Below are positions 6,417 through 24,000 of a stretch of 24,000 bases of DNA, piece by piece. The DNA is from Piscirickettsiaceae bacterium (GTDB lineage: Bacteria > Pseudomonadota > Gammaproteobacteria > Nitrosococcales > Methylophagaceae): the NCBI GenBank assembly GCA_024685995.1, contig JAIBDY010000008.1:1-24000 (forward strand), given 5' to 3'. Numbering within the stretch: position 1 is the stretch's first letter; each line of letters begins with the position of its first letter. Made by a program: the position numbers and the translations under genes. The notes under the pieces were generated by a model. It saw nothing but the letters and a program-made list of their open reading frames with translations. It was not told the DNA's origin and searched no databases.

Positions 6417-6429
6417 GGGGACCGTCACC

Positions 6430-7966: not shown

Positions 7967-8971
7967 TTAGTAGGTGATAGTGACGGTCACAGTATCACTG
8001 TAACTGCCGCTGGGTATCGATTGGGGGGCGGGAACACGACCATAAATGGTCAGGTTCTGGCTGCTTCCTGTACCAGTGTTATTGGCCGTATCGACATCAA
8101 GGGTGTTACCCCAGCGTAGATTGTGAGCACTGTCGCGGTAAAGTTCATATTGAACATAATTACTGGAGGCATCAAGACGCATACGGCGGACTGTCCCATT
8201 GGCATGGAGGCCATTATCGAGCGATACTTTCCATGGTGTGGTCTTGGTGCAAGTAAAGCTGAAGTTAGTGGTTTGATCATTATTATTGTTGATCAAGCCG
8301 GGTACAGTACCAAAGTTGAGGTCGTTGACAACATCGATCTCGCAACTGGCAGGCACAACGGCGCTAGCGCTGAAGGGAAAAGTAATACTGCCGCCACCGT
8401 TGCCACCACTGGTGCAACTAGCAGGCCAGCTTGGTGTGCCTAATACTTCTTCTGCATAACGATAATCTAAGCGGGTATGACCACCAGTGAATAGGCTCTG
8501 GTAATTGTCGGCGGCGAGGCCAAGTTGTGCGGGCACTTGACCATACAGCGTGACCGATTCCATGCCTGAGCCGCCCAATACTGGGACGGCATACTGTAGG
8601 TCAATATCGACATCATCAGTGACACTGTCTCCCCAAGTTTGGCTACGACTTGCATCACGATAGATTTGAAATTGTAATGGGGCTAGTGAAGCGTTACTCA
8701 TGTTCCGAGAGTTAATGCTACTACCCGTGGCGCTACCCGCACCAAGATTAAGACACATGCGTACTCGGGCGTTGGCTAATACAGATAAACCGGCAGTGTG
8801 GCAATCGACCGTCACCGTCGCCGTATTATTTTGCATCGTGCCCATACTGATATTACCAAAGGTTAAATTACTGGCACTCGCACTACAGTCGGTTATCGAA
8901 ACAGCCTTGCATGGGAAGCCGAACAAAGTGATGATAAATAGGCTCGCGATTGGCTGATTTACTGTTGTCAT
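7967..8971 (-). CDS. Two-domain spore-coat-U (SCPU) protein; putative tip subunit/adhesin of a Csu-type pilus (CsuE-like position)
   Basis: It is the last gene of the operon. It carries two tandem pilin-like modules, ending VTLYGQVPAQ... and LTIYGRVPAPQSIPSGSYSDTVTVTITY, the same C-terminal motif as the upstream pilin. I prefer the ATG at 8971, which forms an ATGA overlap with the usher stop. The track start at 8992 has no SD. Confidence 0.8.
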   Translation of the reverse strand: MTTVNQPIASLFIITLFGFPCKAVSITDCSASASNLTFGNISMGTMQNNTATVTVDCHTAGLSVLANARVRMCLNLGAGSATGSSINSRNMSNASLAPLQFQIYRDASRSQTWGDSVTDDVDIDLQYAVPVLGGSGMESVTLYGQVPAQLGLAADNYQSLFTGGHTRLDYRYAEEVLGTPSWPASCTSGGNGGGSITFPFSASAVVPASCEIDVVNDLNFGTVPGLINNNNDQTTNFSFTCTKTTPWKVSLDNGLHANGTVRRMRLDASSNYVQYELYRDSAHNLRWGNTLDVDTANNTGTGSSQNLTIYGRVPAPQSIPSGSYSDTVTVTITY

Positions 8972-11367
8972 AGCGAGGTCTCTTTTAGACATGGGACAGG
9001 GCCGATATAACTGATCGGATCTTTAAGCGTGGGGTAATCGAATTCGGCGTAGCATGTGCTGTTAGGTAAATCGACACGGATGCGGTTTTTGTCTTGTAAG
9101 TTTTCAAGATAGGTTTCGCCATCAAAGCCTACAAATACTAAGCTATCGGGACGACTTTCTTGGTGTACACGACTCGCGACAGGTAAGGGCTGACCACGAG
9201 CATCGGTTAGCAGCACGATAGCGGCACGCACTTTTTTCACAGAGAATTGTACTAGCGTGCCAGCACGATCGCTTGGGGTTGTTACCTGATCTACGATAGT
9301 GACTTTATTATCAATGGGTAAATCCATAGGGTCAATTGATAGCCGGTTATGTTGCCAAGCGTTGAGTCTAGTCACTAGCAGGTTACCCTTATCATTAGTG
9401 TACCCAATGTTCCGATTTTCCAGTTTAACAGGCACATTGGGAATACCGTTAGTAGACACAACGGCGAAGCTATCATTGATGCGCCGTGAGGCAAAACCTT
9501 GGCGATTCATCCAGACGAGGCCGCCGCTGGCTTGGGCATAACTGGCATGTTGATCTCCGCTGCGAGCTATACCAGCAGCAACACGACCATAATTACCTTG
9601 CCAACTACCTTCTGCCGAGGTGTTGCTCATATTGCCATTATGTCCATTTTGAAGCCGCCAACCGTAACCGCCATCACTGGGCAATGCACGTTGTAGGCTG
9701 GCTTGATAACGGTTTCTGTTTGCATTGCGTTGCACATTACTACTGAATTGATAATGACGGTCAAAACTAAGATTAATGCCAAATTGCAGGTTGCGGTCTG
9801 CACTGTCGTTGAGATTTTGATTATAGGATAGATTGAGGAAAATACCGCGACTAATGCTATTACTCCAGTAGACACCGGCATAGCGCGAGGGTCGCTCATC
9901 ACTATCAGCATAGTCGAAGCGAGTGGCATTGATGCCAACATTCCCAAAACCGACCGCATGCACGCCCGCGAGTATTTGTTCGCTGATTTTCGGTGGTGCG
10001 CTACCATAGCGCGTTGCAACATCACGATAGCTGCCGAAGCTACGCTGGCTGGCGGCCGAAAAATTGAAGTGACTGTTACTCCAACTGTAACGCCAAGCTG
10101 TCTGGTGGCCCTGTGCATTGCCTTCATGACTACGCGAGTGAGCGAGGCTAATCACACCTGCCAATTGTGGTTGCCAGACTACACCGATACCGCCATTCAG
10201 TAAGTCACCCCCCGTTTCAGCATGACTTTCCATGGTGAGTTGGTTAGTCACGCCGTAACGAATACTGCCAGTGGCGACCAGTTCGTTTGCATAAGCAAAG
10301 GAACGGATACCATAGTCTTCATGAACCTTTCCAAGGTTTAATGACCAGTCTGATAGCCCTTCGGCGAGTAACTGTTGCGTACTGTAGAACGGAATATCAA
10401 TCGTGGTGGTGCGGCCAAGTATATCGGTGGTTACCACTTGTGCCAGGCCTGTGCCAGTGATGCCGGGTACGGTTGTGAGTTCAAAGGGACCTACAGGCAC
10501 CTCGGACTGATATCGGCGCATGCCATCGATGTAGAGTTCGACGGAGGAAGGCACCGTGGCTTTGCCGACAAACGAAGCCAGCGGCGAGGTTGTGCGGTAG
10601 GGCTGTAGTCTGAAATTACGACTAAACTGGATACCCCCAAAGCGTAAGGGACGGGTCCAACTCAATCCACCACTGATGGCATCGCCGAGGATGACGCGTG
10701 TTGCATGCTCAGGAAATGACCATTCACCAAAGGTATCCAGTGCCACGGTCTCGTTGTGCCAATCGTTGTTTGCCGTGCGTTGTGCACGAGTGATGGCGCT
10801 ATGGCTAAAGACGCCGCTACCAAACCCAAATAGTCGAAACTCGGTGGCGGCCGACGCTAAACGGTGGTCGCCGTCTTGATTGAGGTAAATATCGTAGTTG
10901 ACTAAGGCGCCTGGCGAGGCCATGGCTGTCGGAGCTGTTTGTGGCATCCCCGCCCAGAGTGTGGTTGTCGGTAGCGACAGTAATGATAATGGCGCGGTGA
11001 GTTGTAACTGTTGGGTGTTGACACGGTACGCTACCTCAAGCCCCGGCAGAGCGCTTAATGCGACGCTATCCTCGGAATCATAATTTTGTAAGGTGAAGCC
11101 TAACTGTCTTAGGTCGCTAACTTGGGCGAACAGCTCATTACCTTGTTGGGTAATAGCCAGCAGCGTCGGCTGGCGCGTTTGATTGAGAATCACTTCTAGA
11201 TATAAAGTGATGGCCTGTTGCTGATTCACATGATCGATGATGGCGTTGGCTGACAGGTAGCGTTCGCCGGAGACCTCTCCAGTTAACAATGCTCCCATCA
11301 GTAACGTTGCTAATCGTCTAGTCCGTCGCAGTAATCGGGACAAGAATACGCTCGACCAATTCACCAT
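8968..11367 (-). CDS. Fimbrial outer-membrane usher (799 aa, CsuD-like)
   Basis: Size, position between the chaperone and tip subunit, and beta-rich G/Y/N/S-rich composition are typical of PapC/FimD-type ushers. The ATG at 11367 has SD AAGGA 5 nt upstream. The N-terminus is signal-like (LATLLMGALLTGEVSG). Confidence 0.9.
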   Translation of the reverse strand: MVNWSSVFLSRLLRRTRRLATLLMGALLTGEVSGERYLSANAIIDHVNQQQAITLYLEVILNQTRQPTLLAITQQGNELFAQVSDLRQLGFTLQNYDSEDSVALSALPGLEVAYRVNTQQLQLTAPLSLLSLPTTTLWAGMPQTAPTAMASPGALVNYDIYLNQDGDHRLASAATEFRLFGFGSGVFSHSAITRAQRTANNDWHNETVALDTFGEWSFPEHATRVILGDAISGGLSWTRPLRFGGIQFSRNFRLQPYRTTSPLASFVGKATVPSSVELYIDGMRRYQSEVPVGPFELTTVPGITGTGLAQVVTTDILGRTTTIDIPFYSTQQLLAEGLSDWSLNLGKVHEDYGIRSFAYANELVATGSIRYGVTNQLTMESHAETGGDLLNGGIGVVWQPQLAGVISLAHSRSHEGNAQGHQTAWRYSWSNSHFNFSAASQRSFGSYRDVATRYGSAPPKISEQILAGVHAVGFGNVGINATRFDYADSDERPSRYAGVYWSNSISRGIFLNLSYNQNLNDSADRNLQFGINLSFDRHYQFSSNVQRNANRNRYQASLQRALPSDGGYGWRLQNGHNGNMSNTSAEGSWQGNYGRVAAGIARSGDQHASYAQASGGLVWMNRQGFASRRINDSFAVVSTNGIPNVPVKLENRNIGYTNDKGNLLVTRLNAWQHNRLSIDPMDLPIDNKVTIVDQVTTPSDRAGTLVQFSVKKVRAAIVLLTDARGQPLPVASRVHQESRPDSLVFVGFDGETYLENLQDKNRIRVDLPNSTCYAEFDYPTLKDPISYIGPVPCLKETSL

Positions 11368-12094
11368 TTATCCTTGCCGTAAATGTGCCACCACTGCCCA
11401 GTTTTAGGCCGTCTGGCAGTAGCCATTGTCGTTGCTGATTGGGTAGTACATAACCTGAAAGCCCGGGCGCGATGTTTATGCGTTGTTCGCCCTGCTGCCA
11501 ACTAAGGTCGGCAATCTGGGCGTGACTGTTGCCTTCATTACGGATGTGCAGAAAGTGACTGTCGTTGTCTTTGGTTAAGCGCGTATTCAAGATCGGCTCA
11601 ATAGTAATGTGATTTGGCGGTGTGAGAAAGACGGGGATGGAATAACGCAGTCGAAACTGTAGACCATCGGCTGGGGTATTGTCTGTTGTATCTAAAGGCA
11701 CCGGGACTTCATCGATGAGGATCCGATAACTGCGTTCGGTGGTGGTTGGCGGCTGGCCGTTACGGACTATCCGTACTAGTTGCTGAACATTGGGCGCCAG
11801 TTGCAACATTGGTGGGCTAGCGACAATAGCCTGACTAGGCAGCAATTGATCTTCTCCATCTTGTTGCCGCCATTCAAATACACGAACTTGAGCATATACA
11901 GTCGCTTTACCAGTGTTGATTAGCGTGAGTCCAGCGGCGTTACGTTCTGAGGCAACAAAAATTTGGGTGGGGGAGACCTGCATGCTGGCTTGACTGAGAG
12001 AGCAAACTAACATCAAAAGCGGTAGTGTTATCCTCGTCAGTAACCGCTTTAGCGTGGTGTTGAGTCGTAACTTTATCACCGCAACACTCATCAT
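11318..12094 (-). CDS. Periplasmic pilus chaperone (PapD-like, CsuC-like)
   Basis: About 258 aa with a signal peptide (LPLLMLVCSLSQASMQVSPTQIF). It has the two-lobed Ig-like chaperone size and motifs (VRVFEW, YRILIDEVP, LRYSIPVFL). The ATG at 12094 overlaps the pilin stop as TAATG. The TTG at 12100 in the track is an alternative start. Confidence 0.85.
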   Translation of the reverse strand: MMSVAVIKLRLNTTLKRLLTRITLPLLMLVCSLSQASMQVSPTQIFVASERNAAGLTLINTGKATVYAQVRVFEWRQQDGEDQLLPSQAIVASPPMLQLAPNVQQLVRIVRNGQPPTTTERSYRILIDEVPVPLDTTDNTPADGLQFRLRYSIPVFLTPPNHITIEPILNTRLTKDNDSHFLHIRNEGNSHAQIADLSWQQGEQRINIAPGLSGYVLPNQQRQWLLPDGLKLGSGGTFTARINGELVERILVPITATD

Positions 12095-12609
12095 TACCAA
12101 GTGATAGTGGCGGTGACGGTATCTTTATAATCCTGCGCGGGCGCGCTAGCACTAGGGACTTGGGCATAAATAGAGTGATTTTGTATTGCACCACTGCCAG
12201 TGAGACCGCCTTTAACAGAGCCAAAGGTCGTGTCGTCACCCCACAGCGTTGTGTAGGTATCAGAGTAGAGCTCGTAGGCGACAAAGTTGGTATTGACGGT
12301 TTGACCAATCATGCGCCGAGAGGTCGCGTCTGCATTTGCGCCGCTATTCAATGCGACGGTGTATGCCGTACCTTGCGTGCAGGTAACGTCAATAGAGGCG
12401 CTGCTGACCTGAATATTGGTTGCTGAGGAAGCTTGACTACCAAACACAACATTACCATCAGTCGAAGTGTCAATGCTACAGCTTGATGTGATCGTAATAG
12501 TGACATCAAAGTTACCGGTATCACTACCGGCAAAAACCAGTGGTGCGAAACCAAAGATCGATACTTTGGCAAGAACCTTAAGAAGGGTGTAAGGATTAAA
12601 ATAGTGCAT
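12094..12609 (-). CDS. Spore-coat-U domain pilin; major subunit of a Csu-type archaic chaperone-usher pilus (CsuA/B-like)
   Basis: Signal peptide KVLAKVSIFGFAPLVFAGS. Cys pair SSCSID...DVTC. C-terminal IYAQVPSASAPAQDYKDTVTATITW is typical of SCPU pilins. I prefer the ATG at 12609, because the track TTG at 12639 falls inside a TATAAT hexamer. Confidence 0.85.
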   Translation of the reverse strand: MHYFNPYTLLKVLAKVSIFGFAPLVFAGSDTGNFDVTITITSSCSIDTSTDGNVVFGSQASSATNIQVSSASIDVTCTQGTAYTVALNSGANADATSRRMIGQTVNTNFVAYELYSDTYTTLWGDDTTFGSVKGGLTGSGAIQNHSIYAQVPSASAPAQDYKDTVTATITW

Positions 12610-12638
12610 AATATTTGTTTTTCCATCCTGGTGTGACA

Positions 12639-12690
12639 ATTATATGACAGCGCACTAAGCTATAGGATTATCTGTTTGTTGACAAGATCT
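12639..12690 (-). promoter_or_regulatory. Candidate promoter region of the pilus operon
   Basis: On the - strand there is a TATAAT at 12644-12639, about 30 nt upstream of the ATG at 12609. There is also a TTGTCA-N17-TAGCTT arrangement further upstream. Neither has a full consensus partner hexamer. Confidence 0.3.
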
Positions 12691-12922: not shown

Positions 12923-13822
12923 CTAAGAGCCGGAAAATAAAACCGTATTGGCGGTCTCGATCACTTCTGAAACGATCGGGTTGTTGATTTTCTTTTCGAC
13001 GGAAATAGCGTAGAAATTCTCTGACAGCGCCTCGGTCTGACCGATAAACTCGACATCATTTTGTTGCATCATGGCCGCTTTAATAACCGTCGGTGCGATA
13101 TATATCCCGACACCTTCTTGGCCAAAGGCTTTCATCAGTGCGCTGTCATCAAATTCTGCCACGATATGGGGTTGGAGGCGGTTATGGCTCAGCCATTGTT
13201 CAATATCTAACCGTAGTTGGCTGCCACTATTAGGTAGCAATAATGGGGCGCCATTGAGGCATTGTGGAAAGTCACCAGACAGGCGTTTTTTTATCGCCTT
13301 AGTCGCAAAAAAACTAATCGATGAGTGTCCGAGCTTATGGCTAAAGCCTCGGGTGCTGACATTGGGTGGAATGGGCCGATCCGCAATCACTAAATCAAGT
13401 CGATGGAGCGTCAAGTCTGCGAGTAAAGTGTCGATGTCGGCTTCACGGCAAACTAATCTGGTGGCATTAGGCATTTTGAGTGCAGGGAGTAAAATTTGAT
13501 GAGCGATTAATTTCGGCACAACATCAACCACGCCGACTTTAAATAAAAGTGGTTGGATGTTTGGTTGATATTGCATCATTTGTTCTAGTTCATTGCCTAG
13601 CGAAAATATTTCATCGGCATAGCTCAACACCTGTTGGCCAATAGGGGACAATTCTAGATTACGCCCAACTTTCTTGAATAAGGCGACGCCGTAATAGTCT
13701 TCGAGCAGACTCAGTTGACCGCTAATGGTTTGTGGTGTGATATGTAGGCGTTCGCTGGCCCGAGCGATACTGCCTTCTTTCGCGACCGTCCAAAAGTAAT
13801 GTAGGTGCTTGTAATTGACCAT
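12923..13822 (-). CDS. LysR-family transcriptional regulator, NhaR-like subfamily
   Basis: The N-terminal wHTH NYKHLHYFWTVAKEGSIARASERLHITPQTISGQLSLLE closely resembles the NhaR-type HTH (HLYYFW...LTPQTI). A LysR substrate-binding region follows. The ATG at 13822 has GAGG 8 nt upstream. The track TTG at 13849 adds 9 unlikely residues. No nhaA is adjacent. Confidence 0.9.
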   Translation of the reverse strand: MVNYKHLHYFWTVAKEGSIARASERLHITPQTISGQLSLLEDYYGVALFKKVGRNLELSPIGQQVLSYADEIFSLGNELEQMMQYQPNIQPLLFKVGVVDVVPKLIAHQILLPALKMPNATRLVCREADIDTLLADLTLHRLDLVIADRPIPPNVSTRGFSHKLGHSSISFFATKAIKKRLSGDFPQCLNGAPLLLPNSGSQLRLDIEQWLSHNRLQPHIVAEFDDSALMKAFGQEGVGIYIAPTVIKAAMMQQNDVEFIGQTEALSENFYAISVEKKINNPIVSEVIETANTVLFSGS

Positions 13823-13935
13823 GAAAAATACCTCGGTTTTTACGATCAATATATATAAAAAATTCGACTTTTACTAATGTTTAGGCTGTTTTATTCTGAG
13901 CATCGTAACACTCAAAATTCATTAAGGAGACGGTT

Positions 13936-14979: not shown

Positions 14980-15018
14980 GTCCGCCTCCATAGCACCTAA
15001 CGTCGAATATAAACCCTG

Positions 15019-15050
15019 ATCCCAGTAGCGACTGCTACTGGGATTTTTTT
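15019..15050 (+). terminator. Rho-independent terminator of the hpf-like/yccA unit
   Basis: ATCCCAGTAGC (15019-15029), loop gact, GCTACTGGGAT (15034-15044), followed by a T-run to 15050. Confidence 0.85.
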
Positions 15051-15184
15051 GTTATAAGCGATGAATTAGAGACGACGACAAGGATGGCTTTATCTACCAT
15101 CGCTTAAGGTATGCTGAAGACTAGAAACTAGTGGAGATTGGCTGGGTCAAATAAAATACGGCGTAGGGGATATCTAAATTGGCG

Positions 15185-15940
15185 ATGGCAGACAGCGATA
15201 ACAAACTGGCTTGGATTACCGGAGGAGGCTCAGGGATTGGTAAGGCATTGGCTTTAGCTTTAGATCAGCAAGGCTGGCAAGTTGTCATATCAGGTAGAAC
15301 AGAGCCAAAGCTGCAAGCCGTTGCAGAGCAAGGTCGGCATATCGTCTATTTATTACTAGACGTGACAGACAGAGCGCAAAATCTAGCAGTATTTAATACC
15401 TTATGCGAACAATATGGCTTGCCCAATTTAGTGGTTTTAAACGCTGGAGACTATACCCCAATGCCCGCCGAGGCCTTCGACCTTGACTTGATTTATCGGT
15501 TGAACCAAGTGAATTATTTGGGGGTGATGAATGGTTTAGCGTCGGTTTTACCTGCGATGACTGCACGACAATCAGGACAAATATTACTGATGTCGAGTGT
15601 GGCGGGTTACCGGGGCTTACCCGATGCGGCACCTTATGGGGCGACGAAAGCGGCTTTAATCAATTTTGCCGAGTCTTTGCATAGGCCTCTGAAAGCACAA
15701 GGTGTTATGTTGAGAGTGGTAAACCCCGGATTTGTCACAACACAATTAACAGCGCAAAATAGTTTTAAAATGCCAGCGCAAATAACGACAACAGAAGCCG
15801 CCAAGAGAATAGTACAAGGTCTTGATAGTGATAGCTTTGAAATGACATTTCCGAAGCGCTTTACCTATGTTTTAAAAGTATTACGTTGCTTACCTTATCG
15901 GCTTTATTTCTTTTTGATCGGCAAAATAACGGGCAAATAG
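15185..15940 (+). CDS. Short-chain dehydrogenase/reductase (SDR) family oxidoreductase
   Basis: Cofactor motif TGGGSGIGKALAL, the NAG motif (VLNAGD), and catalytic S...YGATKAAL. The ATG is at 15185 (the track TTG at 15179 adds 2 aa). The stop abuts the next ATG. Confidence 0.9.
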   Translation: MADSDNKLAWITGGGSGIGKALALALDQQGWQVVISGRTEPKLQAVAEQGRHIVYLLLDVTDRAQNLAVFNTLCEQYGLPNLVVLNAGDYTPMPAEAFDLDLIYRLNQVNYLGVMNGLASVLPAMTARQSGQILLMSSVAGYRGLPDAAPYGATKAALINFAESLHRPLKAQGVMLRVVNPGFVTTQLTAQNSFKMPAQITTTEAAKRIVQGLDSDSFEMTFPKRFTYVLKVLRCLPYRLYFFLIGKITGK

Positions 15941-16363
15941 ATGGCTTCACAACAGACATTGGATGCCTACGTCGCTTTTTTTGAGCATATGACAAGGGAA
16001 GACCTAACGAGACTGCCAGAATTTTTTAACCAGCAAGCGCATTTTAAAGATCCGTTTAATGATGTGTATGGGCTTGAACGGATCAGTACGATCTTTCATC
16101 ATATGTTCGACACATTAACAGTCCCTAAGTTTGTTATTGAAGAAGCGGTGTTGAACGCTGATGTGGCCTATATTAAGTGGCAATTCACCGGTATCTTCAA
16201 AGCCAAGCCTATAGAGTTAATTGGTGTTAGCCGGGTTGTGTTTGATCCGCAAGACTTAGTCTCAGAGCATATTGACTATTGGGATGCCAGCGAACAGTTT
16301 TACATGAAACTGCCCATTATTGGCAGCCTGTTACGTTTTATACAAGGCCAAGCTGCAAGCTAA
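15941..16363 (+). CDS. NTF2-like / SnoaL-like small protein (140 aa)
   Basis: The ATG immediately follows the SDR stop (TAGATG). Size and pattern (FF..MT.EDL..L...F...A.FKDPFN...G...I...F) fit the nuclear-transport-factor-2-like family that accompanies this cluster in other genomes. This assignment is from recall. Confidence 0.7.
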   Translation: MASQQTLDAYVAFFEHMTREDLTRLPEFFNQQAHFKDPFNDVYGLERISTIFHHMFDTLTVPKFVIEEAVLNADVAYIKWQFTGIFKAKPIELIGVSRVVFDPQDLVSEHIDYWDASEQFYMKLPIIGSLLRFIQGQAAS

Positions 16364-16921
16364 TTACCAATCGAGTAAGTCAGATCTAAGCGCATCAGAT
16401 AAAGGGTTCTCTGCTAACCATAAACCGACATAGTAGCGGGCAAAATCGATGTTGGGATGTTGATAAAGCAATTCATCATTAAATAACAAAGCAAGCCCCT
16501 TATCAGGATGAATATCGAGACGAAAACGATCCCCTTCGCTGACGTCTTGGTAAAAGGCATGCAAGGCGGCGACATCATTTTGATATAAGGCGCGTTGTTG
16601 CGGCGAATGCTGGCGGCCCAGCGCCACATCAGCGCCTTCAATCAATTGTGCTTTTGACAAGGAGACTCGGTAACGGATTTCAAGCGAAAAAGGCCGTTCA
16701 TCGTCTAGTAGTCGAGACGACTGTGCCCGAGATTCGGCATAGAGCGCAGCATTATAGACCTTGATAAAAATTAACCATGTTGCGGTCGCAGTGGACTTTA
16801 ACTCAAGCTCGCCCCGGATCGGCGGGAAGTCAGGATGGGCAATGGGCATTGCCACGCTAACGCTGAGATTAAACAGCAATGACCACAGGATCCCAATAAG
16901 AATACGGTGTTTTATCATCAT
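16364..16921 (-). CDS. Secreted chalcone-isomerase-fold (CHI-like) family protein
   Basis: Signal peptide MMIKHRILIGILWSLLFNLSVSVA. The motif WLIFIKVYNAALYAE is characteristic of the bacterial CHI-like family. ATGA overlap with the upstream DUF3833 gene. Confidence 0.8.
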   Translation of the reverse strand: MMIKHRILIGILWSLLFNLSVSVAMPIAHPDFPPIRGELELKSTATATWLIFIKVYNAALYAESRAQSSRLLDDERPFSLEIRYRVSLSKAQLIEGADVALGRQHSPQQRALYQNDVAALHAFYQDVSEGDRFRLDIHPDKGLALLFNDELLYQHPNIDFARYYVGLWLAENPLSDALRSDLLDW

Positions 16922-17442
16922 TTTTTTTGGAAAACCAGCGTGACTTCACCTAAAAAGAAGCCAAATTTAGTCATTTTAGCGCGATTGATTAATACGCCAT
17001 CTTTCTGCAAAAACATCCAATCATCGAATTGCACTTGCACGGTACCATCTTGATAAGGCAAATTGAGTGTATAGGCCCAGTTCAAGGCATTGCCATAAGC
17101 GCGGCCTGTGGCATGACCAATTACATCCGCCGCTCGACCTTCATAATGATGTGCATCGATCTTGTTGATGGTCCATACACGTCGATCTAGGGTGCCATCG
17201 GCATAGACAAAGTCTTCTTCTAACACGAGGTTGCCTGCAACCATTTTTCCTAAGATCTCGACGGTAAACTGGCGTTCAACTTGACCTTTGCGGTTTTGAA
17301 ATATGCCCCAAGCACGAGTGTGACCAAGAAAGTAGTCCTCAATAACGAAATGGGGTGTCTTGTTTTGATATTGCTCGACAGACATATTACTGCAGCCAGA
17401 AAAAGTAAGGAGTGATAATAGAATTAAGAGGCTTTTTGTCAT
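16918..17442 (-). CDS. DUF3833-like lipoprotein
   Basis: The ATG at 17442 (ATGA overlap with the MFS stop, SD GAGGAA 8 nt upstream) gives MTKSLLILLSLLTFSG|C, a lipobox. The body (FVIEDYFLGHTRAWGIFQNRKG..., FDDWMFL, NRAKMTKFGFFLGEVTLVFQK) matches the DUF3833 pattern from recall. The 26-aa extension in the track is rejected. Confidence 0.8.
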   Translation of the reverse strand: MTKSLLILLSLLTFSGCSNMSVEQYQNKTPHFVIEDYFLGHTRAWGIFQNRKGQVERQFTVEILGKMVAGNLVLEEDFVYADGTLDRRVWTINKIDAHHYEGRAADVIGHATGRAYGNALNWAYTLNLPYQDGTVQVQFDDWMFLQKDGVLINRAKMTKFGFFLGEVTLVFQKK

Positions 17443-18746
17443 GGCAAGGTTCCTCTGTTGAGTTGTTGGCGTAGGAGCTGGTGTTGCTTGCGGTCTAATG
17501 GAAAACGCCATATCGTCCAAGCAGCCACAAGTTTAAAAGGAATTGGCAACAGTCCGTAAAGTACAGATAGCGCCCATAAATTATTATCAGCGGGAACGGT
17601 GTGGGTATCAAAGCCCAACAGCGTTAATAAGGGAAAAGCAATACCAACAGCCAAGGCTAGCGATAATTTCGTTGCCATCCCCCAAAGACCAAAGAAAAAG
17701 CCACTGCGTTGTCCACCGCCTTCGCGACTATCAAGATCAATGACATCGGCTTGAATCGATGCCGGTAATGCCATGTCGATGCCGAGGCTAAGACCAGACA
17801 AAATGCAGATAATCAGGAAAGGCATAAAGTCACCAGCCCCTAAGGTCGGTACCCAACAAAAAATAGCGACTGCCCATAACATGGATACCCCCCAAATACG
17901 GTGTTTGTTAAAGCGTTGAGACAGCTTTACGCCGATAGGGAGACCAATTAAGCCACTGACAAAATAAGCCGACAGCAATAAGCCAAATTGCTCGGGTATG
18001 GCGAGAACATAGCTGACAAATAGTAAAAATAAGGTGGCCGGTAGGCCGTTAGCGATGCCATTCATAAAATAAGCAAACAATAACCGAGTGAACAGACGAT
18101 TTTGTTTTAACAAGGTCAAACCAGCTTGAAAAGCGATAGGATCAGAACGCCGATTAGACTCCGGCACATTGAGCAAACAAAGTAGGACGGTAGCGGGGAG
18201 TAAAAAAACCAAAAACTGCGCCAGAACGATCAGCGCTTCACCGGGCGCATCACTGCTGATCCCCATGGCTAAAGGTAAGCCGGCAGCGAATAGTGTGCCG
18301 ATTAAGATAAAGCTTTCACGACTGGCTGTAATTGTACTACGCTGATCATAATCGTTCGATAACTCTGCACCCCAAGCGGTATAGGGTAAAGTGAGTAGGC
18401 TCCAGGCTAAATAAACCAATAAGCTCCAGCATAATAGCCAATAAAAGCCACTGCCTTCTGGCGGGATGAAAAGTGCCAAAATGGCCATAATTAACATCGG
18501 GGTCGCTATGGCCATCAACCATTTTCGTCGCGATGGTAATGGTAACCAATCAGACAATAATCCAATCAAGGGGTCAGTGATGACATCACTGACCCGTGCA
18601 ATCAATAGGGCTGTTCCCACAGCAGCAAGACCAAGACCGAACTGCTCGGCATAAAAAGTGGGCAAGTAGATATAAAGCGGTAACCCTAAAGCGGCCAGTG
18701 GCAGTCCGGGCAAACCATAAAACCAATAGCGACGACTAGCTGACAT
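17439..18746 (-). CDS. MFS transporter (GPH/COG2211-like, 12 TM)
   Basis: 435 aa, hydrophobic throughout. The loop motif after TM2 is typical of MFS (ARVSDVITDPLIGLLSDW). It starts 2 nt after the methyltransferase stop. Confidence 0.85.
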   Translation of the reverse strand: MSASRRYWFYGLPGLPLAALGLPLYIYLPTFYAEQFGLGLAAVGTALLIARVSDVITDPLIGLLSDWLPLPSRRKWLMAIATPMLIMAILALFIPPEGSGFYWLLCWSLLVYLAWSLLTLPYTAWGAELSNDYDQRSTITASRESFILIGTLFAAGLPLAMGISSDAPGEALIVLAQFLVFLLPATVLLCLLNVPESNRRSDPIAFQAGLTLLKQNRLFTRLLFAYFMNGIANGLPATLFLLFVSYVLAIPEQFGLLLSAYFVSGLIGLPIGVKLSQRFNKHRIWGVSMLWAVAIFCWVPTLGAGDFMPFLIICILSGLSLGIDMALPASIQADVIDLDSREGGGQRSGFFFGLWGMATKLSLALAVGIAFPLLTLLGFDTHTVPADNNLWALSVLYGLLPIPFKLVAAWTIWRFPLDRKQHQLLRQQLNRGTLP

Positions 18747-18748
18747 TG

Positions 18749-19966
18749 CTAATGTGGTTTGGCCATTAGGTATTGGTAAACCCCAGTGTGACCGGTTCGG
18801 AAAGCGGCCTCACAATAGGATAAATAATAGCGCCACATGCGGATAAAGCGCTTATCGTATCCCAGTGTTTCTACTTGATGGACAACATCATTAAAGCGCT
18901 GATGCCAGAGTAAGACCGTACGTTCATAATCACGGCTATAGTTAGTGGCCCGTTCGATCGCAAGTCCTGCATGCTGGGCGTGCTGAGCAAAGATTTCCGG
19001 AGAGGGCAACATACCACCAGGAAAGATATAACGTTGAATAAAGTCGACATTTTGTCGATATTGGTCAAAATATTGATGGTCAATAGTGATGGTTTGTAAG
19101 GCTATCTTGCCGCCGGGTTTTAGGCGTGAAAACAGCATATCAAAAAAATCAGGCCAATACGCTTCACCAACAGCTTCAAACATTTCAATACTCACAATAT
19201 GATCGAAGGGTTGTTTTAAATGCCGATAGTCTTGCAAGCGTAAGTCGACAAGTTCATTCAAGCCGGCATCATGAACGCGCTGTTTTGCCCAAGCCAGTTG
19301 CTCGGTCGATAAGGTAATGGCTGTCACGCGATAACCTTGTTTAGCCGCATGTTCGGCAAAACCGCCCCAACCACAACCGACTTCTAGAATATGTTGTCCT
19401 GGTGACGCGTTGATAGAAGCTAATAATTGTTGATACTTTCGAGTCTGGGCTCGTTCTAGGGATTCATTGGGGGCAGCGAAGATGGCGCTGGAATAGGTCA
19501 TGGTCGAGTCGAGCCATAAGCGATAGAAGTCATTGCCCAGATCATAATGTGCTGCAATATTTCGACGGCTACCTCGTTCGCTATTACGTCGGGCTAAGTG
19601 ACGCAAGCGATGAAATAGGCGGACAAAACTATTGGCTTCGATATGCGTCGATAACGCGGTTAAGTTCAGAGTGGCCCAATACAAAAAATCGGATAAATTA
19701 CGGGTATCCCAATCCCCTTGAATATAGGCTTCGGCAAAACCGATATCGCCATCACTAGTTAATTTTTTAATGATTTTCAATGCATTGTATATGGTGATAT
19801 TGGCATCGGGCCCCGTTTGTTTGCCCTCGACAAGATAAGTTTCATTACCAATATGAATATGAAGTCGGCCTTGTTGACAAGTCGATAGCATACGATAGAG
19901 TAACTTGATGACAATCGGTGCTCTAGGGTCTGGCAATAATGTTATTTGCGCGTTTTGACTATCCAT
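18749..19966 (-). CDS. Cyclopropane-fatty-acyl-phospholipid-synthase-family SAM-dependent methyltransferase
   Basis: SAM motif I is ILEVGCGWGGFAEHAAKQG. CFAS-family blocks are HYDLGNDFY, MTYSSAIF and IEMFEAVG..YWPDFF. The ATG at 19966 has GAGGTGA 7 nt upstream. The longer track start is rejected. Confidence 0.9.
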   Translation of the reverse strand: MDSQNAQITLLPDPRAPIVIKLLYRMLSTCQQGRLHIHIGNETYLVEGKQTGPDANITIYNALKIIKKLTSDGDIGFAEAYIQGDWDTRNLSDFLYWATLNLTALSTHIEANSFVRLFHRLRHLARRNSERGSRRNIAAHYDLGNDFYRLWLDSTMTYSSAIFAAPNESLERAQTRKYQQLLASINASPGQHILEVGCGWGGFAEHAAKQGYRVTAITLSTEQLAWAKQRVHDAGLNELVDLRLQDYRHLKQPFDHIVSIEMFEAVGEAYWPDFFDMLFSRLKPGGKIALQTITIDHQYFDQYRQNVDFIQRYIFPGGMLPSPEIFAQHAQHAGLAIERATNYSRDYERTVLLWHQRFNDVVHQVETLGYDKRFIRMWRYYLSYCEAAFRTGHTGVYQYLMAKPH

Positions 19967-20721
19967 TCGCTTTTCACCTCTTGTTGTCCTTCTTGATAAG
20001 AATGAAATTTTCCTCCCCGAAGCCATATTTTCAATGCTTGCCAATGGATCATGAACATAATTTTGAAAGACATCATGGGCATCATAAAAAAGGCTTTGAG
20101 CAAATGCCGGTTGTTTAATTCTGTCAGCGTCGTGTTTTGCGATGCAATAAGATGGAGTTGTCCATTTTGATATTCGTTTATTAAAACTCCCAAACTGGAC
20201 TTAGATTGACTGAATTTAAAGTGATATTGTTGATTCATACCAATAAACGGTGATACGTGAAAACGTTTGTCGGCAATACACTCCACAGGCCATTGCAAAC
20301 TGTTACCTTTGGAGTGGTGGACGTAATGGTAAACGCCGCCAAAGGTATTACTGACCTCACTGATAATCGCGATCGTTTCCCCCTGACTGTTGTCACAATA
20401 CCAAACGGCTATGGGGTTAAAGCCGTAGCCTAAAACACGTGGGAAACACGATAAGCGAATGCGCACAGCATCATCAATACCAGCATCGGCTAAGGTGCTT
20501 TCTACCCATGGCCGCCAAGCAGAACCATCCCGTGGGCCATGGTCTTGTGTTCGGACACTGAGTAAATTAAATCGATCTACACTTAACCATTTTAAAGCGG
20601 CGGCTTCTTGCTCAATAAGATCAATATCAATCAATAAGCCAAAAACACGATAGTTAAAGCGGTAGGCCATCGGCATCATCCGTTGATGCATGACATGTCC
20701 AAAAAACAGTTTACTCGCCAT
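19942..20721 (-). CDS. DUF1365-family protein
   Basis: The ATG at 20721 follows GGAGG. The N-terminus LFFGHVMHQRMMPMAYRFNYRVFGLLIDIDLI fits the DUF1365 opening pattern (G.V.H.R..P..H.F.Y......DLD). It is positioned between the COG2907 FAD protein and the CFAS-like gene, as in the conserved cluster. Confidence 0.8.
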   Translation of the reverse strand: MASKLFFGHVMHQRMMPMAYRFNYRVFGLLIDIDLIEQEAAALKWLSVDRFNLLSVRTQDHGPRDGSAWRPWVESTLADAGIDDAVRIRLSCFPRVLGYGFNPIAVWYCDNSQGETIAIISEVSNTFGGVYHYVHHSKGNSLQWPVECIADKRFHVSPFIGMNQQYHFKFSQSKSSLGVLINEYQNGQLHLIASQNTTLTELNNRHLLKAFFMMPMMSFKIMFMIHWQALKIWLRGGKFHSYQEGQQEVKSEWIVKTRK

Positions 20722-20723
20722 GG

Positions 20724-22007
20724 TTACCTCCGTTCCCAAGGAATAGGCACGGCTAGCTGTTTAGCAACAGAAACGGCCGAACTTAACGCGTCTTCATGAA
20801 AGCCATAACCAAAATAACTACCGGCAAACCAAGTTCTATTTTGTCCTTGCAATTGCTGAAGCTGTGATTGTGTGGCCATCGCCTGAAGATCAAAGACAGG
20901 ATGCATATACTGAATCCGTCGAATAATCTTGTCTGGGTCTATCTGGTGAATCGGATTTAAGCTAACAAAATAGTCTTGAGATGGCTCCAACCCTTGCAAG
21001 GCATTCATCCAATAGCTAACAGACAGCGATGGCGTTGCCCCACCACTTTGCTTGGCAAGGTAGTTCCAGCAAGACCATACTTTAGGATGAGTTGGCATCA
21101 GATTAGGATCGGTATGTAAATAGGTGTCGTTTTCTTGATAATGAAATGCAGACAAGACAGCGTGTTCTTTAGCTGTCGTGTCTGCAAGCAGAGACAAAGC
21201 CTCATCAGCATGGGTGGCGATAACGACTTGATCGACGTTGTGTTGTTGACCATCTTCTAAAGTAATGGTCACTATATTCGCTTTTCTGTCGACCTTTTTA
21301 ACGCCATTATTCACAATAACCTCTCCCGAATATGAAGCCAATAATTTGTCAACATAGCGTTGGCTACCACCCACAACGGTACGCCATTGTGGACGATTAT
21401 TAACATTTAATAGGCCATGGTTATCGAAAAACTGAGCAAAATTTTTGGCTGGGAATGACTGCATTTGCTGTGGCGGGCAAGACCAAATCGCTGCGGCCAT
21501 CGGCAGTAAATAATCGTTCTGCATGGCCTCGCCAATGCGAAGCTGTGAGAGCAAGTCACCTAAAGAGAGCGTCGGATCGGCTTGCTTATCGTTAATAAAT
21601 GCTTTGGCATGTCGGTTAAATCTAACAATGTCATAGATGAATTTAATGAATCGAGGTGATACCAGATTCCGCCGCTGGGCGAATAAGGTATCTAAGTTGT
21701 TACCGGCATATTCTAATCCCGAGTCTAAAATCGATGCCGAGAAGGTCATATTGGTCGGGCGTGTTGTTACCCCTAGGGTATCAAATAAGCCAACCAAATT
21801 AGGGTAGTTAGGTTCGTTGTAGACGATAAATCCGGTATCGACCGGCGTGTCCAACCCTGTCTGGGCATTGCTTACCGAGATAGTGTTGGTGTGGCCACCA
21901 ATATAAGCGTTTTTGTCGATCAACAGTATTTGATAGCGTTGACTCAATAGCCAAGCACTAGCCATACCCGCAATGCCCGATCCGATAACCGCTATTTTTG
22001 TCGTCAA
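20724..22007 (-). CDS. NAD(P)/FAD-dependent oxidoreductase (amine-oxidase/COG2907-like)
   Basis: Rossmann dinucleotide motif KIAVIGSGIAGMASAWLLSQRYQILLIDKNAYIGGHTNT. TTG start with a G-rich SD 7 nt upstream. 427 aa. Confidence 0.85.
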   Translation of the reverse strand: MTTKIAVIGSGIAGMASAWLLSQRYQILLIDKNAYIGGHTNTISVSNAQTGLDTPVDTGFIVYNEPNYPNLVGLFDTLGVTTRPTNMTFSASILDSGLEYAGNNLDTLFAQRRNLVSPRFIKFIYDIVRFNRHAKAFINDKQADPTLSLGDLLSQLRIGEAMQNDYLLPMAAAIWSCPPQQMQSFPAKNFAQFFDNHGLLNVNNRPQWRTVVGGSQRYVDKLLASYSGEVIVNNGVKKVDRKANIVTITLEDGQQHNVDQVVIATHADEALSLLADTTAKEHAVLSAFHYQENDTYLHTDPNLMPTHPKVWSCWNYLAKQSGGATPSLSVSYWMNALQGLEPSQDYFVSLNPIHQIDPDKIIRRIQYMHPVFDLQAMATQSQLQQLQGQNRTWFAGSYFGYGFHEDALSSAVSVAKQLAVPIPWERR

Positions 22008-22125
22008 TATTTCGCCCCCAAGTCCGTGACGTAGTGATGTCTCATAACGTCGTTATTTTGAGAAAATATCTTTTGTTGCAGACGGTGCAGACCCACAGAC
22101 TTTCGTTGAGTTATGCCCGATTGTG

Positions 22126-22323
22126 CTACCCGATTTGCCACGGGATACTCAAGGCCTGAATGTCGTCGGGGTGTTCATAAGAAGTGACAATGATTTTTAA
22201 CTTAAGTGCCAAATCAGTGTGAGCGATATTGCTGTTAGCTTTCTCAGAGACAGAGGCTGTCATGCTGGCTGCATGAAAATAAGATGCTCCATTCTTCATG
22301 GCTAAAACCACTTTATGGTTCAT
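22126..22323 (-). CDS. Hypothetical small protein (65 aa); doubtful
   Basis: This is the only ORF in the 305-bp gap between yfcH-like and the FAD oxidoreductase. Its ATG lies 8 nt before the yfcH-like stop, with no SD and no recognisable motif. Confidence 0.2.
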   Translation of the reverse strand: MNHKVVLAMKNGASYFHAASMTASVSEKANSNIAHTDLALKLKIIVTSYEHPDDIQALSIPWQIG

Positions 22324-23236
22324 GACGTTGCTGGCTGTTGAAAAAAAGATGGTTCAAGGCATGCGTTAATGTTGAGTAGCTAAAACGAAAGCCATTGGCT
22401 GTGGCGCGTTGTGGTATGGCGCGTTGTCCGGTCAGCAATAAACGTGACATCTCTCCAAGAGTGGTTCTTAATAACCATGCGGGGACTGGCAGAGTGAGAT
22501 AATGCCGTGTCTGTTTAATGAGTGCTGCGGTGAAGGCTTGATTGGTGACGGGGTTGGGGGAGCAGGCATTGAAGACGCCATTTAAGTGTTCATGATGCGC
22601 CAAAAACATTAACAAACGGACCATGTCCGCGATATGGATCCAAGGCATATATTGCTCACCAGTGCCGATATGGCCACCCATGCCTAGCTTAAAAGGCAAG
22701 CTCATTTTTTGTAAGATACCACCCGCTGACGATAACACTAGCCCTGTTCTGACAATACAGACCCTGATCCCCGAATGTTCTGCGCGTAAAGCTTGTTTCT
22801 CCCATGCATCACATAGCTGGTGGGTATACTCATCATGATAATAAGATTGCTCCGTTAATATCCTGCCTTGACCATCACCATACCAACCGACAGCCGAGCC
22901 GCTAATCAGGCATGCGGGTGGTTGTTTTCTAACACGCATCCAATCCACAAGTTGATGTGTAAGATTGATACGGCTGGAGGCTAATAAGGCTTTACGCTGG
23001 GCTGACCATCTCGTATTAGCAATCGGCTCGCCGGCCAAGTTGATCACAATATCAATGGTGGTGTCAGAGGGGATATTGCTCAAAGATTGGACAGCTTTAA
23101 CCTCCATACCGCATTTACTTTTTACAGTATCTGGGCGTCGACTCAACACGGTGACGTGATGGCCGTCAGTGGTTAACTGCCGACACAGTGCGGAACCAAT
23201 TAAGCCTGTACCGCCTGTTATCAAATAATGTTTCAT
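22313..23236 (-). CDS. yfcH: YfcH-like epimerase-family protein (TIGR01777 / SDR39U1-type, atypical SDR with a DUF1731 C-terminus)
   Basis: ITGGTGLIGSALCRQL, INLAGEPIANTRWS, SGSAVGWYG and the C-terminal LLTGQRAIPQR...GFRF are collinear with E. coli YfcH as I remember it. The ATG at 23236 has AAGGTG 10 nt upstream. Confidence 0.85.
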   Translation of the reverse strand: MKHYLITGGTGLIGSALCRQLTTDGHHVTVLSRRPDTVKSKCGMEVKAVQSLSNIPSDTTIDIVINLAGEPIANTRWSAQRKALLASSRINLTHQLVDWMRVRKQPPACLISGSAVGWYGDGQGRILTEQSYYHDEYTHQLCDAWEKQALRAEHSGIRVCIVRTGLVLSSAGGILQKMSLPFKLGMGGHIGTGEQYMPWIHIADMVRLLMFLAHHEHLNGVFNACSPNPVTNQAFTAALIKQTRHYLTLPVPAWLLRTTLGEMSRLLLTGQRAIPQRATANGFRFSYSTLTHALNHLFFNSQQRHEP

Positions 23237-23297
23237 CAAATATACACCTTAGCGTGAAGGAGACTTGATGTTGGCATTATTATACAAATAAATATTC

Positions 23298-23326
23298 TTG
23301 TACAACTATTTGGCGCTTGTTAGTCT
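23298..23326 (+). promoter_or_regulatory. Candidate sigma-70 promoter of ybgA (-35 TTGTAC, 17-nt spacer, -10 TAGTCT)
   Basis: The hexamers were read directly. The -10 lies about 24 nt upstream of the ATG, with GAGGGGG as the SD. The -35 element is embedded in the TTGTACAA palindrome. Confidence 0.3.
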
Positions 23327-23349
23327 ATTACTGAAGATGAGGGGGTGAT

Positions 23350-24000
23350 ATGAAAATCAAGGTTGGGATCAGTAGTTGTCTGTTGGGCAACGAGGTGCGT
23401 TTCGATGGTGGCCATAAGCATTCGACACTCTGTAGTGAGGAGCTAGCCCGCTATTTTGACTTTGTTGCAGAATGTCCAGAGGTTGGAATAGGGCTAGGGA
23501 TCCCCAGAAAACCAATTCGTTTAATCGGTGATGTCAACGCCCCTTCAATGGTGTCAACGCATGATGAGAGCATCGATCATACCGACAAAATGCTTGAATT
23601 TAGCCACCGAAAGGCAAAGGAGCATTCAGATCTCTGCGGGTATATCTTTATGAAAAACTCACCCAGTTGCGGCCTCTTTCGCGTCAAGGTGTATCAAGAC
23701 AACGGTTATCCTGCAAAAGAGCCTGGTAGGGGCGTTTATGCCCGCATCATAACCGAAAAAAATCCATTGTTACCAGTAGAAGAATCTGGCAGATTAACCG
23801 ACCCAGCATTACGGGAAAATTTTATTGGCCGTGTATTTGCCTACCATAACTGGCAACAGTTAATACGGTCGGACTTGAGCTATCACAGCATTATCGACTT
23901 TCATTCACGTTATAAATATAGCTTGATGGCGCATGCGCCGGCGAGCTATGTTGAGTTAGGTAGAATGTTAGCGGATGCAGGTAAACATGACGTCGCTAGC
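23350..24000 (+). CDS. ybgA: YbgA-family protein (DUF523 plus DUF1722); 3' end lies outside the window
   Basis: It is absent from the ORF track because no stop is reached. I translated it by hand: MKIKVGISSCLLGNEVRFDGGHKH...MKNSPSCG...HSRYKYSLMAH, 217 codons open to nt 24000. The SD is GAGGGGG. The opening VGISxCLLGxxVRFDGGHK is the YbgA hallmark. Confidence 0.85.
   Translation, partial: MKIKVGISSCLLGNEVRFDGGHKHSTLCSEELARYFDFVAECPEVGIGLGIPRKPIRLIGDVNAPSMVSTHDESIDHTDKMLEFSHRKAKEHSDLCGYIFMKNSPSCGLFRVKVYQDNGYPAKEPGRGVYARIITEKNPLLPVEESGRLTDPALRENFIGRVFAYHNWQQLIRSDLSYHSIIDFHSRYKYSLMAHAPASYVELGRMLADAGKHDVAS

Follow-up and report, generated by a model that had tools for sequence, protein, structure and literature searches.

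A predicted furan fatty acid operon with accessory genes and a putative LitR-type operator in a marine gammaproteobacterium

Gene content and organization of the locus

The 24,000-nucleotide (nt) stretch of contig JAIBDY010000008.1 (hereafter, the window) ends in a compact group of genes, starting at position 15179, the core of which (18749–22007) corresponds on sequence grounds to the ufaD-ufaO-ufaM operon of the described furan fatty acid (FuFA) pathway. From its proteins the source appears to be a relative of the Methylophagaceae among the uncultured marine gammaproteobacteria. The closest named relatives are a Methylophagaceae metagenome-assembled genome, with a UfaO that is 81% identical, and Methylophaga and Cycloclasticus, whose homologues of the flanking gene product RudS are 66–69% identical. 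A sequence-only reading had described the region as a ten-gene cluster, with a tightly packed chain on the minus strand, and had proposed a membrane-lipid modification module related to UfaM/UfaD/UfaO and tied to light or photo-oxidative stress. Families were assigned by Pfam and NCBIfam searches of the translated open reading frames (ORFs; E-values are given in brackets), and junctions were checked base by base. The ten ORFs were all present at the positions claimed, with the tight junctions described, and every family named in that reading gave significant similarity in Pfam.

The minus-strand chain begins with a FAD oxidoreductase gene, assigned as ufaD (20724–22007; PF01593 Amino_oxidase, 1.1e-17, and PF13450 NAD_binding_8), which has a TTG start codon with GGGGG eight nt upstream. 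It is followed after a gap of 2 nt by a DUF1365 gene, assigned as ufaO (19942–20721; PF07103, 1.8e-70, profile positions 1–233 of 235), and then by a gene for a methyltransferase resembling cyclopropane fatty acid (CFA) synthase, assigned as ufaM (18749–19966; Pfam CMAS, 2.7e-86). The last two overlap by 25 nt if the overlapping ATG is taken as the CMAS start. Next, after another 2-nt gap, is an MFS_2 (GPH-family) transporter gene (17439–18746; MFS_2, 1.1e-69), which is joined through an ATGA overlap to the gene of a DUF3833 lipoprotein (16918–17442; DUF3833, 1.8e-64). A second ATGA overlap leads to the last gene of the chain, encoding a chalcone-isomerase-fold (CHI-like) protein (16364–16921; Chalcone_3, 3e-19).

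Two further genes are located on the plus strand. The first encodes a classical short-chain dehydrogenase/reductase (SDR; 15179–15940; adh_short, 1.4e-42; alternative ATG at 15185), and its TAG stop is followed without spacing by the ATG of a SnoaL_2/NTF2-like gene (15941–16363; SnoaL_2, 1.5e-10). This pair had been read as facing the minus-strand chain; in fact the SnoaL-like and CHI-like genes converge stop to stop at 16363/16364, with zero bases and no terminator between them, which implies transcriptional collision or antisense overlap. On the left, a strong intrinsic-terminator-like hairpin (15018–15045, plus strand; 12 pairs and a T run) located 3' of a Bax1-I/YccA-like gene marks the boundary of the group, and the SDR-SnoaL-like pair therefore needs a promoter of its own within 15046–15178. 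G+C content is 43–47% across the region, with an even composition.

Core biosynthetic genes

Studies of Rhodobacter sphaeroides have assigned reactions to the first two members of the trio. The FAD protein UfaD (RSP1091) desaturates 11-methyl-12-trans-18:1 to the 10,12-diene, and the DUF1365 protein UfaO (RSP1090) closes the furan ring using O2 (Lemke, 2020; PMC7380195). The cofactor and mechanism of UfaO were still unsettled as of that 2020 report. The amine-oxidase/phytoene-desaturase-like FAD protein of the window is assigned as UfaD and would make the conjugated diene; its best relative in the PDB by sequence is LkcE (1.9e-33). The DUF1365 protein is assigned as UfaO and would carry out O2-dependent furan closure on the 11-methyl-10,12-diene acyl chain. 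It had been listed among proteins with no assigned reaction, a description that the work on RSP1090 has overtaken. The UfaO of the window is 38–46% identical to those of the alphaproteobacterial loci retrieved. Its AlphaFold2 (AF2) model (pLDDT 87, pTM 0.84) consists of a large beta structure and two C-terminal helices; a Foldseek search with the model gave no PDB fold match at E<=1e-3, only a weak partial likeness to calycin barrels, and a PDB sequence search gave no meaningful match.

The third protein is assigned by position and family as UfaM, the cis-vaccenate 11-methyltransferase. It is a two-domain enzyme of the bacterial CFA synthase (CFAS) type with CFAS 5z9o as its best PDB relative (2.7e-58), and it scored under every NCBIfam Cfa equivalog cut-off, with 263.6 bits against 400 for NF008686, 257.7 against 600 for NF053839, and 236.3 against 650 for CfaB (NF040703). 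In Rhodopseudomonas palustris the in-operon homologue of this gene, RPA2569, is a functional UfaM (PMC7380195), and the in-operon ufaM of Halomonas sp. YLGW01 makes 11-methyloctadec-12-enoate in Escherichia coli (PMC12089945). The ORF list of the 24-kb window holds no second CMAS gene.

The core of the locus adds nothing new to the pathway: by sequence it is one more ufaD-ufaO-ufaM operon, here in a gammaproteobacterium. The pathway and its product had been regarded as open questions in gammaproteobacteria, which for the core they are not, given the Halomonas ufaM and the pseudomonad light regulon (PMC9758184).

Conservation in related loci

A scan by UfaO alignment, with one genome per species, retrieved 80 loci from gamma- and alphaproteobacteria. 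Counts rest on the 51 loci flanked by 6 kb or more on each side, a sample that was picked by similarity to the query and is biased accordingly. The FAD and CMAS genes were each found in all 51, and the order FAD-DUF1365-CMAS and its strand were constant throughout. The other genes were less regular: SDR occurred in 30 of 51 loci, MFS and DUF3833 in 28 each, the SnoaL-like gene in 19 (directly after SDR in 18 of these) and the CHI-like gene in 16, always after DUF3833 and/or MFS, while thirteen loci had the trio alone. The SDR gene was on the other strand from the ufa genes in 31 of the 32 cases scored, lying convergently downstream of them or divergently upstream. In Pelagibacter the trio is retained with DUF3833 and SDR, and two distant DUF3833 homologues used as independent anchors were both surrounded by the same gene cluster. 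The unit is thus a fixed trio with a modular accessory set, in which the MFS, DUF3833, CHI-like, SDR and SnoaL-like genes are optional.

A cluster of ten genes is too wide a description. The ybgA gene lay within 7 kb in none of the 51 loci and yfcH was adjacent in only one, and both yfcH and rudS (the "ybgA" of the sequence-only reading) are therefore lineage-specific neighbours and not members of the pathway. Relative L002 (UfaO 81% identical) carries the same eight-gene block with other flanks, lacking yfcH and rudS. Relative L085, whose UfaO belongs to the same 90% cluster, shares synteny with the window over 9.1 kb (84% nucleotide identity); upstream of the block there are genes for a ferredoxin reductase and YfcH along with a small ORF, and rudS is not among them. 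The abutting SnoaL-like and CHI-like stops and the tight packing are kept in both (14361/14362 in L002 and 8162/8163 in L085).

Recurrent neighbours were found by de novo clustering of all ORFs in the loci, followed by Pfam. The most frequent were a MerR-family regulator of about 300 amino acids (aa; 17 loci), photolyase (15 loci) and a short LOV/PAS protein (12 loci), followed by ChrR, glutathione peroxidase and a DCC1-like oxidoreductase (6 loci each) and DUF3429, CryB-type DPRP and DUF6134 (4 loci each). Among the loci anchored on DUF3833, other contexts included a divergent pair of extracytoplasmic function (ECF) sigma factor and ChrR genes, or a MerR protein with B12-binding domains. With the trio invariant in 51 of 51 loci and photolyase, MerR, LOV and ChrR genes among the neighbours, the proposed link of a lipid-modifying module to light or photo-oxidative stress is borne out, as is the recurrence of the trio beside photolyase. 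The neighbourhood comparison that the sequence-only reading had called for thus showed a fixed trio and accessory genes in 16–30 of 51 loci.

Flanking genes yfcH and rudS

Upstream of ufaD, a spacer of 305 nt (22008–22312) is followed by yfcH (22313–23236, minus strand), an extended SDR of the SDR39U1 family (TIGR01777, 341.8 bits against a cut-off of 207.35; PF01370 Epimerase and PF08338 DUF1731) whose best PDB relative is SDR39U1 4b4o (4.2e-44). The gene is probably the first of the minus-strand transcription unit, and L006, L007, L085 and L086, the closest relatives, are the only ones in which it adjoins the ufa genes. The spacer measures 68–69 nt in the close relatives L085 and L006, compared with 305 nt in the window, a difference of about 240 nt. 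Scans of 22008–22312 for terminator-like, sigma-70-like, LitR-type and sigmaE-type sites and for Rfam families were all negative, and in view of the lack of a terminator-like site or operator there, read-through from yfcH into ufaD is plausible but unproven. The spacer also holds a 65-aa ORF (22126–22323), which is called as a gene in L001 too and has no Pfam match in the precomputed annotation.

Divergent from yfcH, the gene at 23350 (plus strand, running beyond 24000) had been named ybgA and counted among those with no assigned reaction. It encodes a TudS domain at residues 5–145 (PF04463 2-thiour_desulf, 5.8e-37) and the start of DUF1722 from residue 189, and is cut at residue 217 by the end of the window; a full-length protein that is 100% identical (P0243) has 314 aa with PF04463 and PF08349. 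The TudS-DUF1722 protein RudS was shown in 2024 to remove 4-thiouridine (s4U) from tRNA in Pseudomonas and Salmonella, and it is found in LitR/photolyase operons, including phrB-litR-rudS (PMC11417400). Cys10, Cys42 and Cys107 of the window protein are the three cluster cysteines listed in that study, in which E. coli YbgA, a stand-alone DUF1722 protein, was inactive on s4U. The presence of the TudS domain rules out an identity with E. coli YbgA, and by its domain architecture the protein is RudS, a predicted tRNA s4U desulfidase. Since RudS acts on tRNA s4U, it would share a light regulon with the ufa genes and not their chemistry.

Regulation

Footprinting in Pseudomonas has given the operator consensus T(G/A)TACA-N12-TGTA(C/T)A for class II LitR proteins (PplR1/PmlR2; PMC9758184). 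A putative operator of this type, TATACA-N12-TGTACA with 0 mismatches to the consensus (TATACAAATAAATATTCTTGTACA), is located at 23281–23304, in the 110-nt region between the divergent yfcH and rudS genes, and overlaps sigma-70-like hexamers on either strand. It is the sole perfect match in the 24 kb, and none of 100 shuffles gave one. The 1.4 Mb of related loci contained three other perfect sites, all in promoter regions: one in L001 that is a copy of the window's own site, one in L006 between a MerR gene and the string desaturase-...-yfcH-ufaD, and one in L025 between SDR and ufaD. When up to two mismatches were allowed, 6 of 25 ufaD-upstream regions had a site, compared with 62 of 2000 random windows. 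Relative L092 (RudS 86% identical) has an almost identical operator 44 nt upstream of rudS, and there a gene for a 301-aa MerR protein overlaps the rudS end; in L006, a MerR-phr pair is divergent from the operator.

The sequence-only reading had noted that no regulator was visible. This holds for genes, as the ORFs of the 24-kb window encode no light or oxidative-stress regulator and the sole regulator gene is a LysR-family ORF (12923–13849) about 1.3 kb upstream of the cluster; it does not hold for sites, given the perfect operator. By analogy with the relatives, the gene for a LitR-type repressor is most likely to be found immediately beyond rudS, just outside the window past nt 24000; its product would control both divergent promoters. 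The sigmaE motif TGATC-N15-20-CGTA has a single match in the window, inside the yfcH coding sequence and at chance rate (59 of 100 shuffles), and an Rfam scan of the whole window gave no match. Two ORFs at 12094–12639 (181 aa) and 11318–12100 (260 aa) were considered as a hidden ECF sigma/anti-sigma pair and rejected, as they are a SCPU pilin and a PapD chaperone.

Both kinds of control are known for these genes. The core sigmaE-ChrR regulon comprises SDR (RSP1087; PMC5507510), lipoprotein, DUF1365, amine oxidase, phrB and cfaS genes (PMC5507510, PMC3546557), control by ChrR and MerR has been published for Vibrio cholerae, and in pseudomonads a class II LitR/short-LOV system controls phrB, SDR, FAD oxidoreductase and ufaM (PMC9758184). 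If the predicted site is functional, the footprinted Pseudomonas class II LitR operator extends to a distant gammaproteobacterial lineage, and one light response would there link FuFA synthesis with the removal of s4U from tRNA.

Two observations concern the promoter regions of the relatives. In three of them a membrane fatty-acid desaturase gene (PF00487), with a 2Fe-2S ferredoxin or ferredoxin-NAD(P) reductase gene, lies under the same LitR-type operator (L006 5845–7684, L085 153–1474 and L092 8613–9791), either ahead of yfcH-ufaD or divergently from rudS. The desaturase and ferredoxin genes are missing from the window, so that the promoter region has been rearranged within the lineage. In L089 (630–1933 and 2171–2194), where the cluster is flanked by ECF sigma and ChrR genes, the region upstream of ufaD has TGATCC, a -35 element of the sigmaE-ChrR type, from which it appears that the cluster has swapped LitR-type and sigmaE-type control between lineages.

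Accessory genes

The MFS protein is predicted to resemble the lysophospholipid symporter MFSD2A more than it does sugar carriers. A PDB sequence search gave 1.7e-22 with MFSD2A (7oix) versus 5e-7 with MelB, the best stretch being the C-terminal half (residues 192–424); a lysolipid substrate is predicted only. The DUF3833 protein has a lipobox (...FSGC) with Cys17 invariant in 46 homologues, and in its AF2 model (pLDDT 93.5) a signal helix precedes a 10-stranded beta-barrel of the calycin/nitrobindin-like kind. Foldseek matched this model in the PDB to BFA1, Ycf58 (similar to fatty-acid-binding proteins, FABP), the THAP4 nitrobindin, OssO and polyketide spirocyclases, with E between 1.5e-4 and 1e-3, TM of 0.52–0.67 and identities of 8–17%. 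The translated CHI-like protein has a signal-peptide-like N-terminus and is predicted to be secreted. PDB sequence searches with the DUF3833, CHI-like and SnoaL-like proteins gave no meaningful match.

The statement that DUF3833, CHI-like, SnoaL-like and YfcH proteins have no assigned reaction stands, and the same applies to the roles of the SDR and MFS proteins. These results support, and do not prove, an envelope route for FuFA-bearing lysolipids or oxidation products. Bacteria from SAR11 to the purple sulfur group carry the accessory families together with the pathway; none of the families has a phenotype, and their predicted locations and folds point to lipid trafficking or repair. The question of their role is a genuine one but not particular to this locus, which offers a usable lead and a compact example.

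Proposed mechanism and alternative explanations

Taken as a whole, the explanation favoured here, a FuFA operon with accessory roles under LitR-type light control, is considered probable. Its core chemistry is taken by analogy from published homologues and its regulatory part from one operator site and the relatives; the accessory roles we infer. The substrates would be acyl chains already within membrane phospholipids. UfaM would methylate cis-vaccenate to 11-methyl-12-trans-18:1, UfaD would desaturate this to the 10,12-diene, and UfaO would insert O2-derived oxygen and close the furan ring to give 9M5-FuFA, a scavenger of radicals and singlet oxygen. The MFSD2A-like carrier in the inner membrane, the DUF3833 calycin-barrel lipoprotein and the secreted CHI-fold protein, translationally coupled to the core and predicted to be in the envelope, would most likely bind FuFA-bearing lysolipids, free FuFA or oxidation products and move them across or beyond the inner membrane, and the convergent SDR and SnoaL-like pair would most likely process a carbonyl-bearing FuFA derivative. 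Transcription would start from the yfcH/rudS divergent promoter region, on which a class II LitR-type MerR repressor would sit in the dark and from which it would be released by blue light. In this way yfcH, and the ufa genes by read-through, would be induced together with rudS, the two flanking genes sharing a regulon and not a pathway.

Several points weigh against this explanation. R. sphaeroides can do without its in-operon CFAS-like gene RSP1089, its true ufaM (RSP2144) being located elsewhere, next to phrB (PMC7380195), and the CMAS gene of the window could by analogy be dispensable as well, with ufaM at another site. The same study found that deletion of RSP1087 (SDR), RSP1088 (lipoprotein) or RSP1089 left the fatty-acid profile unaltered, from which it follows that the accessory genes are not biosynthetic; their link to FuFA would be one of guilt by association. 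With respect to regulation, the window ends before any LitR/MerR regulator gene, the MerR proteins of L092 and L006 have no Pfam B12-binding domain, relatives with a UfaO that is 78–81% identical lack yfcH and show no operator, and an alignment of the ufaD-upstream regions of seven close relatives gave no conserved promoter or operator motif. The operator-free yfcH-ufaD spacer could also hold an independent promoter.

A bolder proposal for the five accessory genes would make them the second half of FuFA biology, acting in turnover and not in synthesis; it is put forward tentatively and regarded as doubtful. FuFA-bearing lysolipids, or their oxidised dioxo-ene products, would be carried back and forth between inner membrane and outer envelope by the MFSD2A-like transporter, the barrel lipoprotein and a periplasmic CHI-fold protein, and the SDR and SnoaL-like proteins would reduce and cyclodehydrate the 1,4-dicarbonyl back to the furan. 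Such regeneration by the SDR/NTF2 pair, speculatively an enzymatic reaction of the Paal-Knorr type, would if true make FuFA a recyclable antioxidant and not a sacrificial one, and a role in turnover would explain the unchanged steady-state profile of the unstressed R. sphaeroides mutants.

The explanation that competes most directly with the assignment of UfaM is that the in-operon methyltransferase is a dispensable paralogue like RSP1089 or an ordinary cyclopropane synthase, so that the operon alone would yield no FuFA or some other lipid. The position of RSP1089 and the fact that the best solved relatives of the CMAS protein are bona fide CFA synthases speak for it. This is nevertheless unlikely in view of scores far under the NCBIfam cut-offs for Cfa, CfaB and Brucella CFA synthase, the functional UfaM encoded in the same position in R. 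palustris and Halomonas, and the absence of a second CMAS gene from the window. It is quite unlikely that a singlet-oxygen-responsive ECF sigmaE-ChrR pair, of the kind known from Rhodobacter, P. syringae and V. cholerae, controls the cluster in place of a LitR-type repressor. Such control of these genes has been published, and ChrR, alone or with an ECF sigma gene, adjoins the cluster in several relatives (e.g., L089); the window, however, has neither gene (the suspect ORFs at 11318–12639 being SCPU pilus genes) and a perfect LitR-type operator in place of a sigmaE motif, the only such motif being the chance-rate match inside yfcH, and the closest relatives carry MerR genes and not ChrR.

Nitrobindin-like barrels bind heme, and some CHI-domain proteins bind heme too. 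The ligand of the accessory proteins might accordingly be heme or some other tetrapyrrole and not lipid, their role being perhaps to keep a photosensitiser sequestered, and nitrobindins (3ia8, 3wje), nitrophorins and a phycobiliprotein lyase are among the Foldseek matches of DUF3833. The same search, however, scored the FABP-like Ycf58 and polyketide spirocyclases equally high, with the low identities given above, and the accessory genes are translationally coupled to lipid-modifying enzymes and an MFSD2A-like carrier, which makes a tetrapyrrole ligand improbable. Least credible is the idea that all ten genes form one biochemical pathway in which YfcH and the YbgA-like protein act on lipid. 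It draws on the adjacency of the ten genes, on the operator-bearing promoter region that yfcH and rudS have in common, and on the location of yfcH directly upstream of ufaD in the nearest relatives. Against it stand the rarity of the two flanking genes among the 51 loci, the tRNA s4U substrate of RudS (PMC11417400), and the finding that in relatives the same operator has a fatty-acid desaturase gene in place of yfcH across from rudS (L092) or the MerR gene (L006), in each case divergently oriented; taken together, these leave the idea extremely unlikely. The favoured explanation thus keeps yfcH and rudS as co-regulated neighbours of a FuFA operon.

Other genes in the window

The rest of the window contains genes of other kinds. 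A four-gene chaperone-usher pilus operon of the SCPU/Csu-like type occupies 7967–12639 on the minus strand and encodes a SCPU pilin of 181 aa, a PapD chaperone, an usher of 799 aa and a two-domain SCPU tip protein of 341 aa. An overlapping pair at 5028–7719 (minus strand) encodes a DUF3482 GTPase (470 aa) and a DUF2868 membrane protein (429 aa) and looks conserved. A predicted lipoprotein of 182 aa (1317–1865, minus strand; signal peptide ...WGCAS) with no Pfam match is encoded next to the gene of a methyl-accepting chemotaxis protein (2308–4245).

Comparison with known systems

In R. sphaeroides, photo-oxidative stress induces a group of genes, RSP1091-RSP1087, for UfaD, UfaO, the CFAS-like protein, lipoprotein RSP1088 and SDR RSP1087. 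That operon is under a divergently encoded sigmaE-ChrR pair, whereas the window has no such pair or promoter motif and carries a LitR-type operator instead. The SDR gene lies within the operon in R. sphaeroides but is convergent in the window, and the functional ufaM of R. sphaeroides is in the separate phrB neighbourhood RSP2143-2144. The MFS, CHI-like and SnoaL-like genes have not been reported for the R. sphaeroides operon and are present here.

The likeness in regulation is greatest with Pseudomonas. The pplR1/pmlR1 region includes light-inducible phrB, SDR, FAD oxidoreductase and ufaM genes, and its operator overlaps sigma-70 promoters, as the putative one does promoter-like hexamers in the window (Maruyama 2022; PMC9758184). 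The arrangement differs in that the window operator is common to yfcH and rudS and does not lie directly before ufaD, and in that regulator, short LOV and photolyase genes are not inside the 24 kb. RudS of Pseudomonas and Salmonella has the same two-domain architecture and the same three cluster cysteines as the window protein, whose activity is predicted (PMC11417400).

For the trio itself, RPA2571-RPA2570-RPA2569 of R. palustris have been identified as ufaD-ufaO-ufaM (PMC7380195). R. palustris is an alphaproteobacterium, and the likeness extends to the families and gene numbers given in that source, the numbers suggesting that the genes are contiguous as in the window. A gammaproteobacterial counterpart is found in Halomonas sp. 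YLGW01, where ufaD, ufaO and ufaM are consecutive, like those of the window (PMC12089945).

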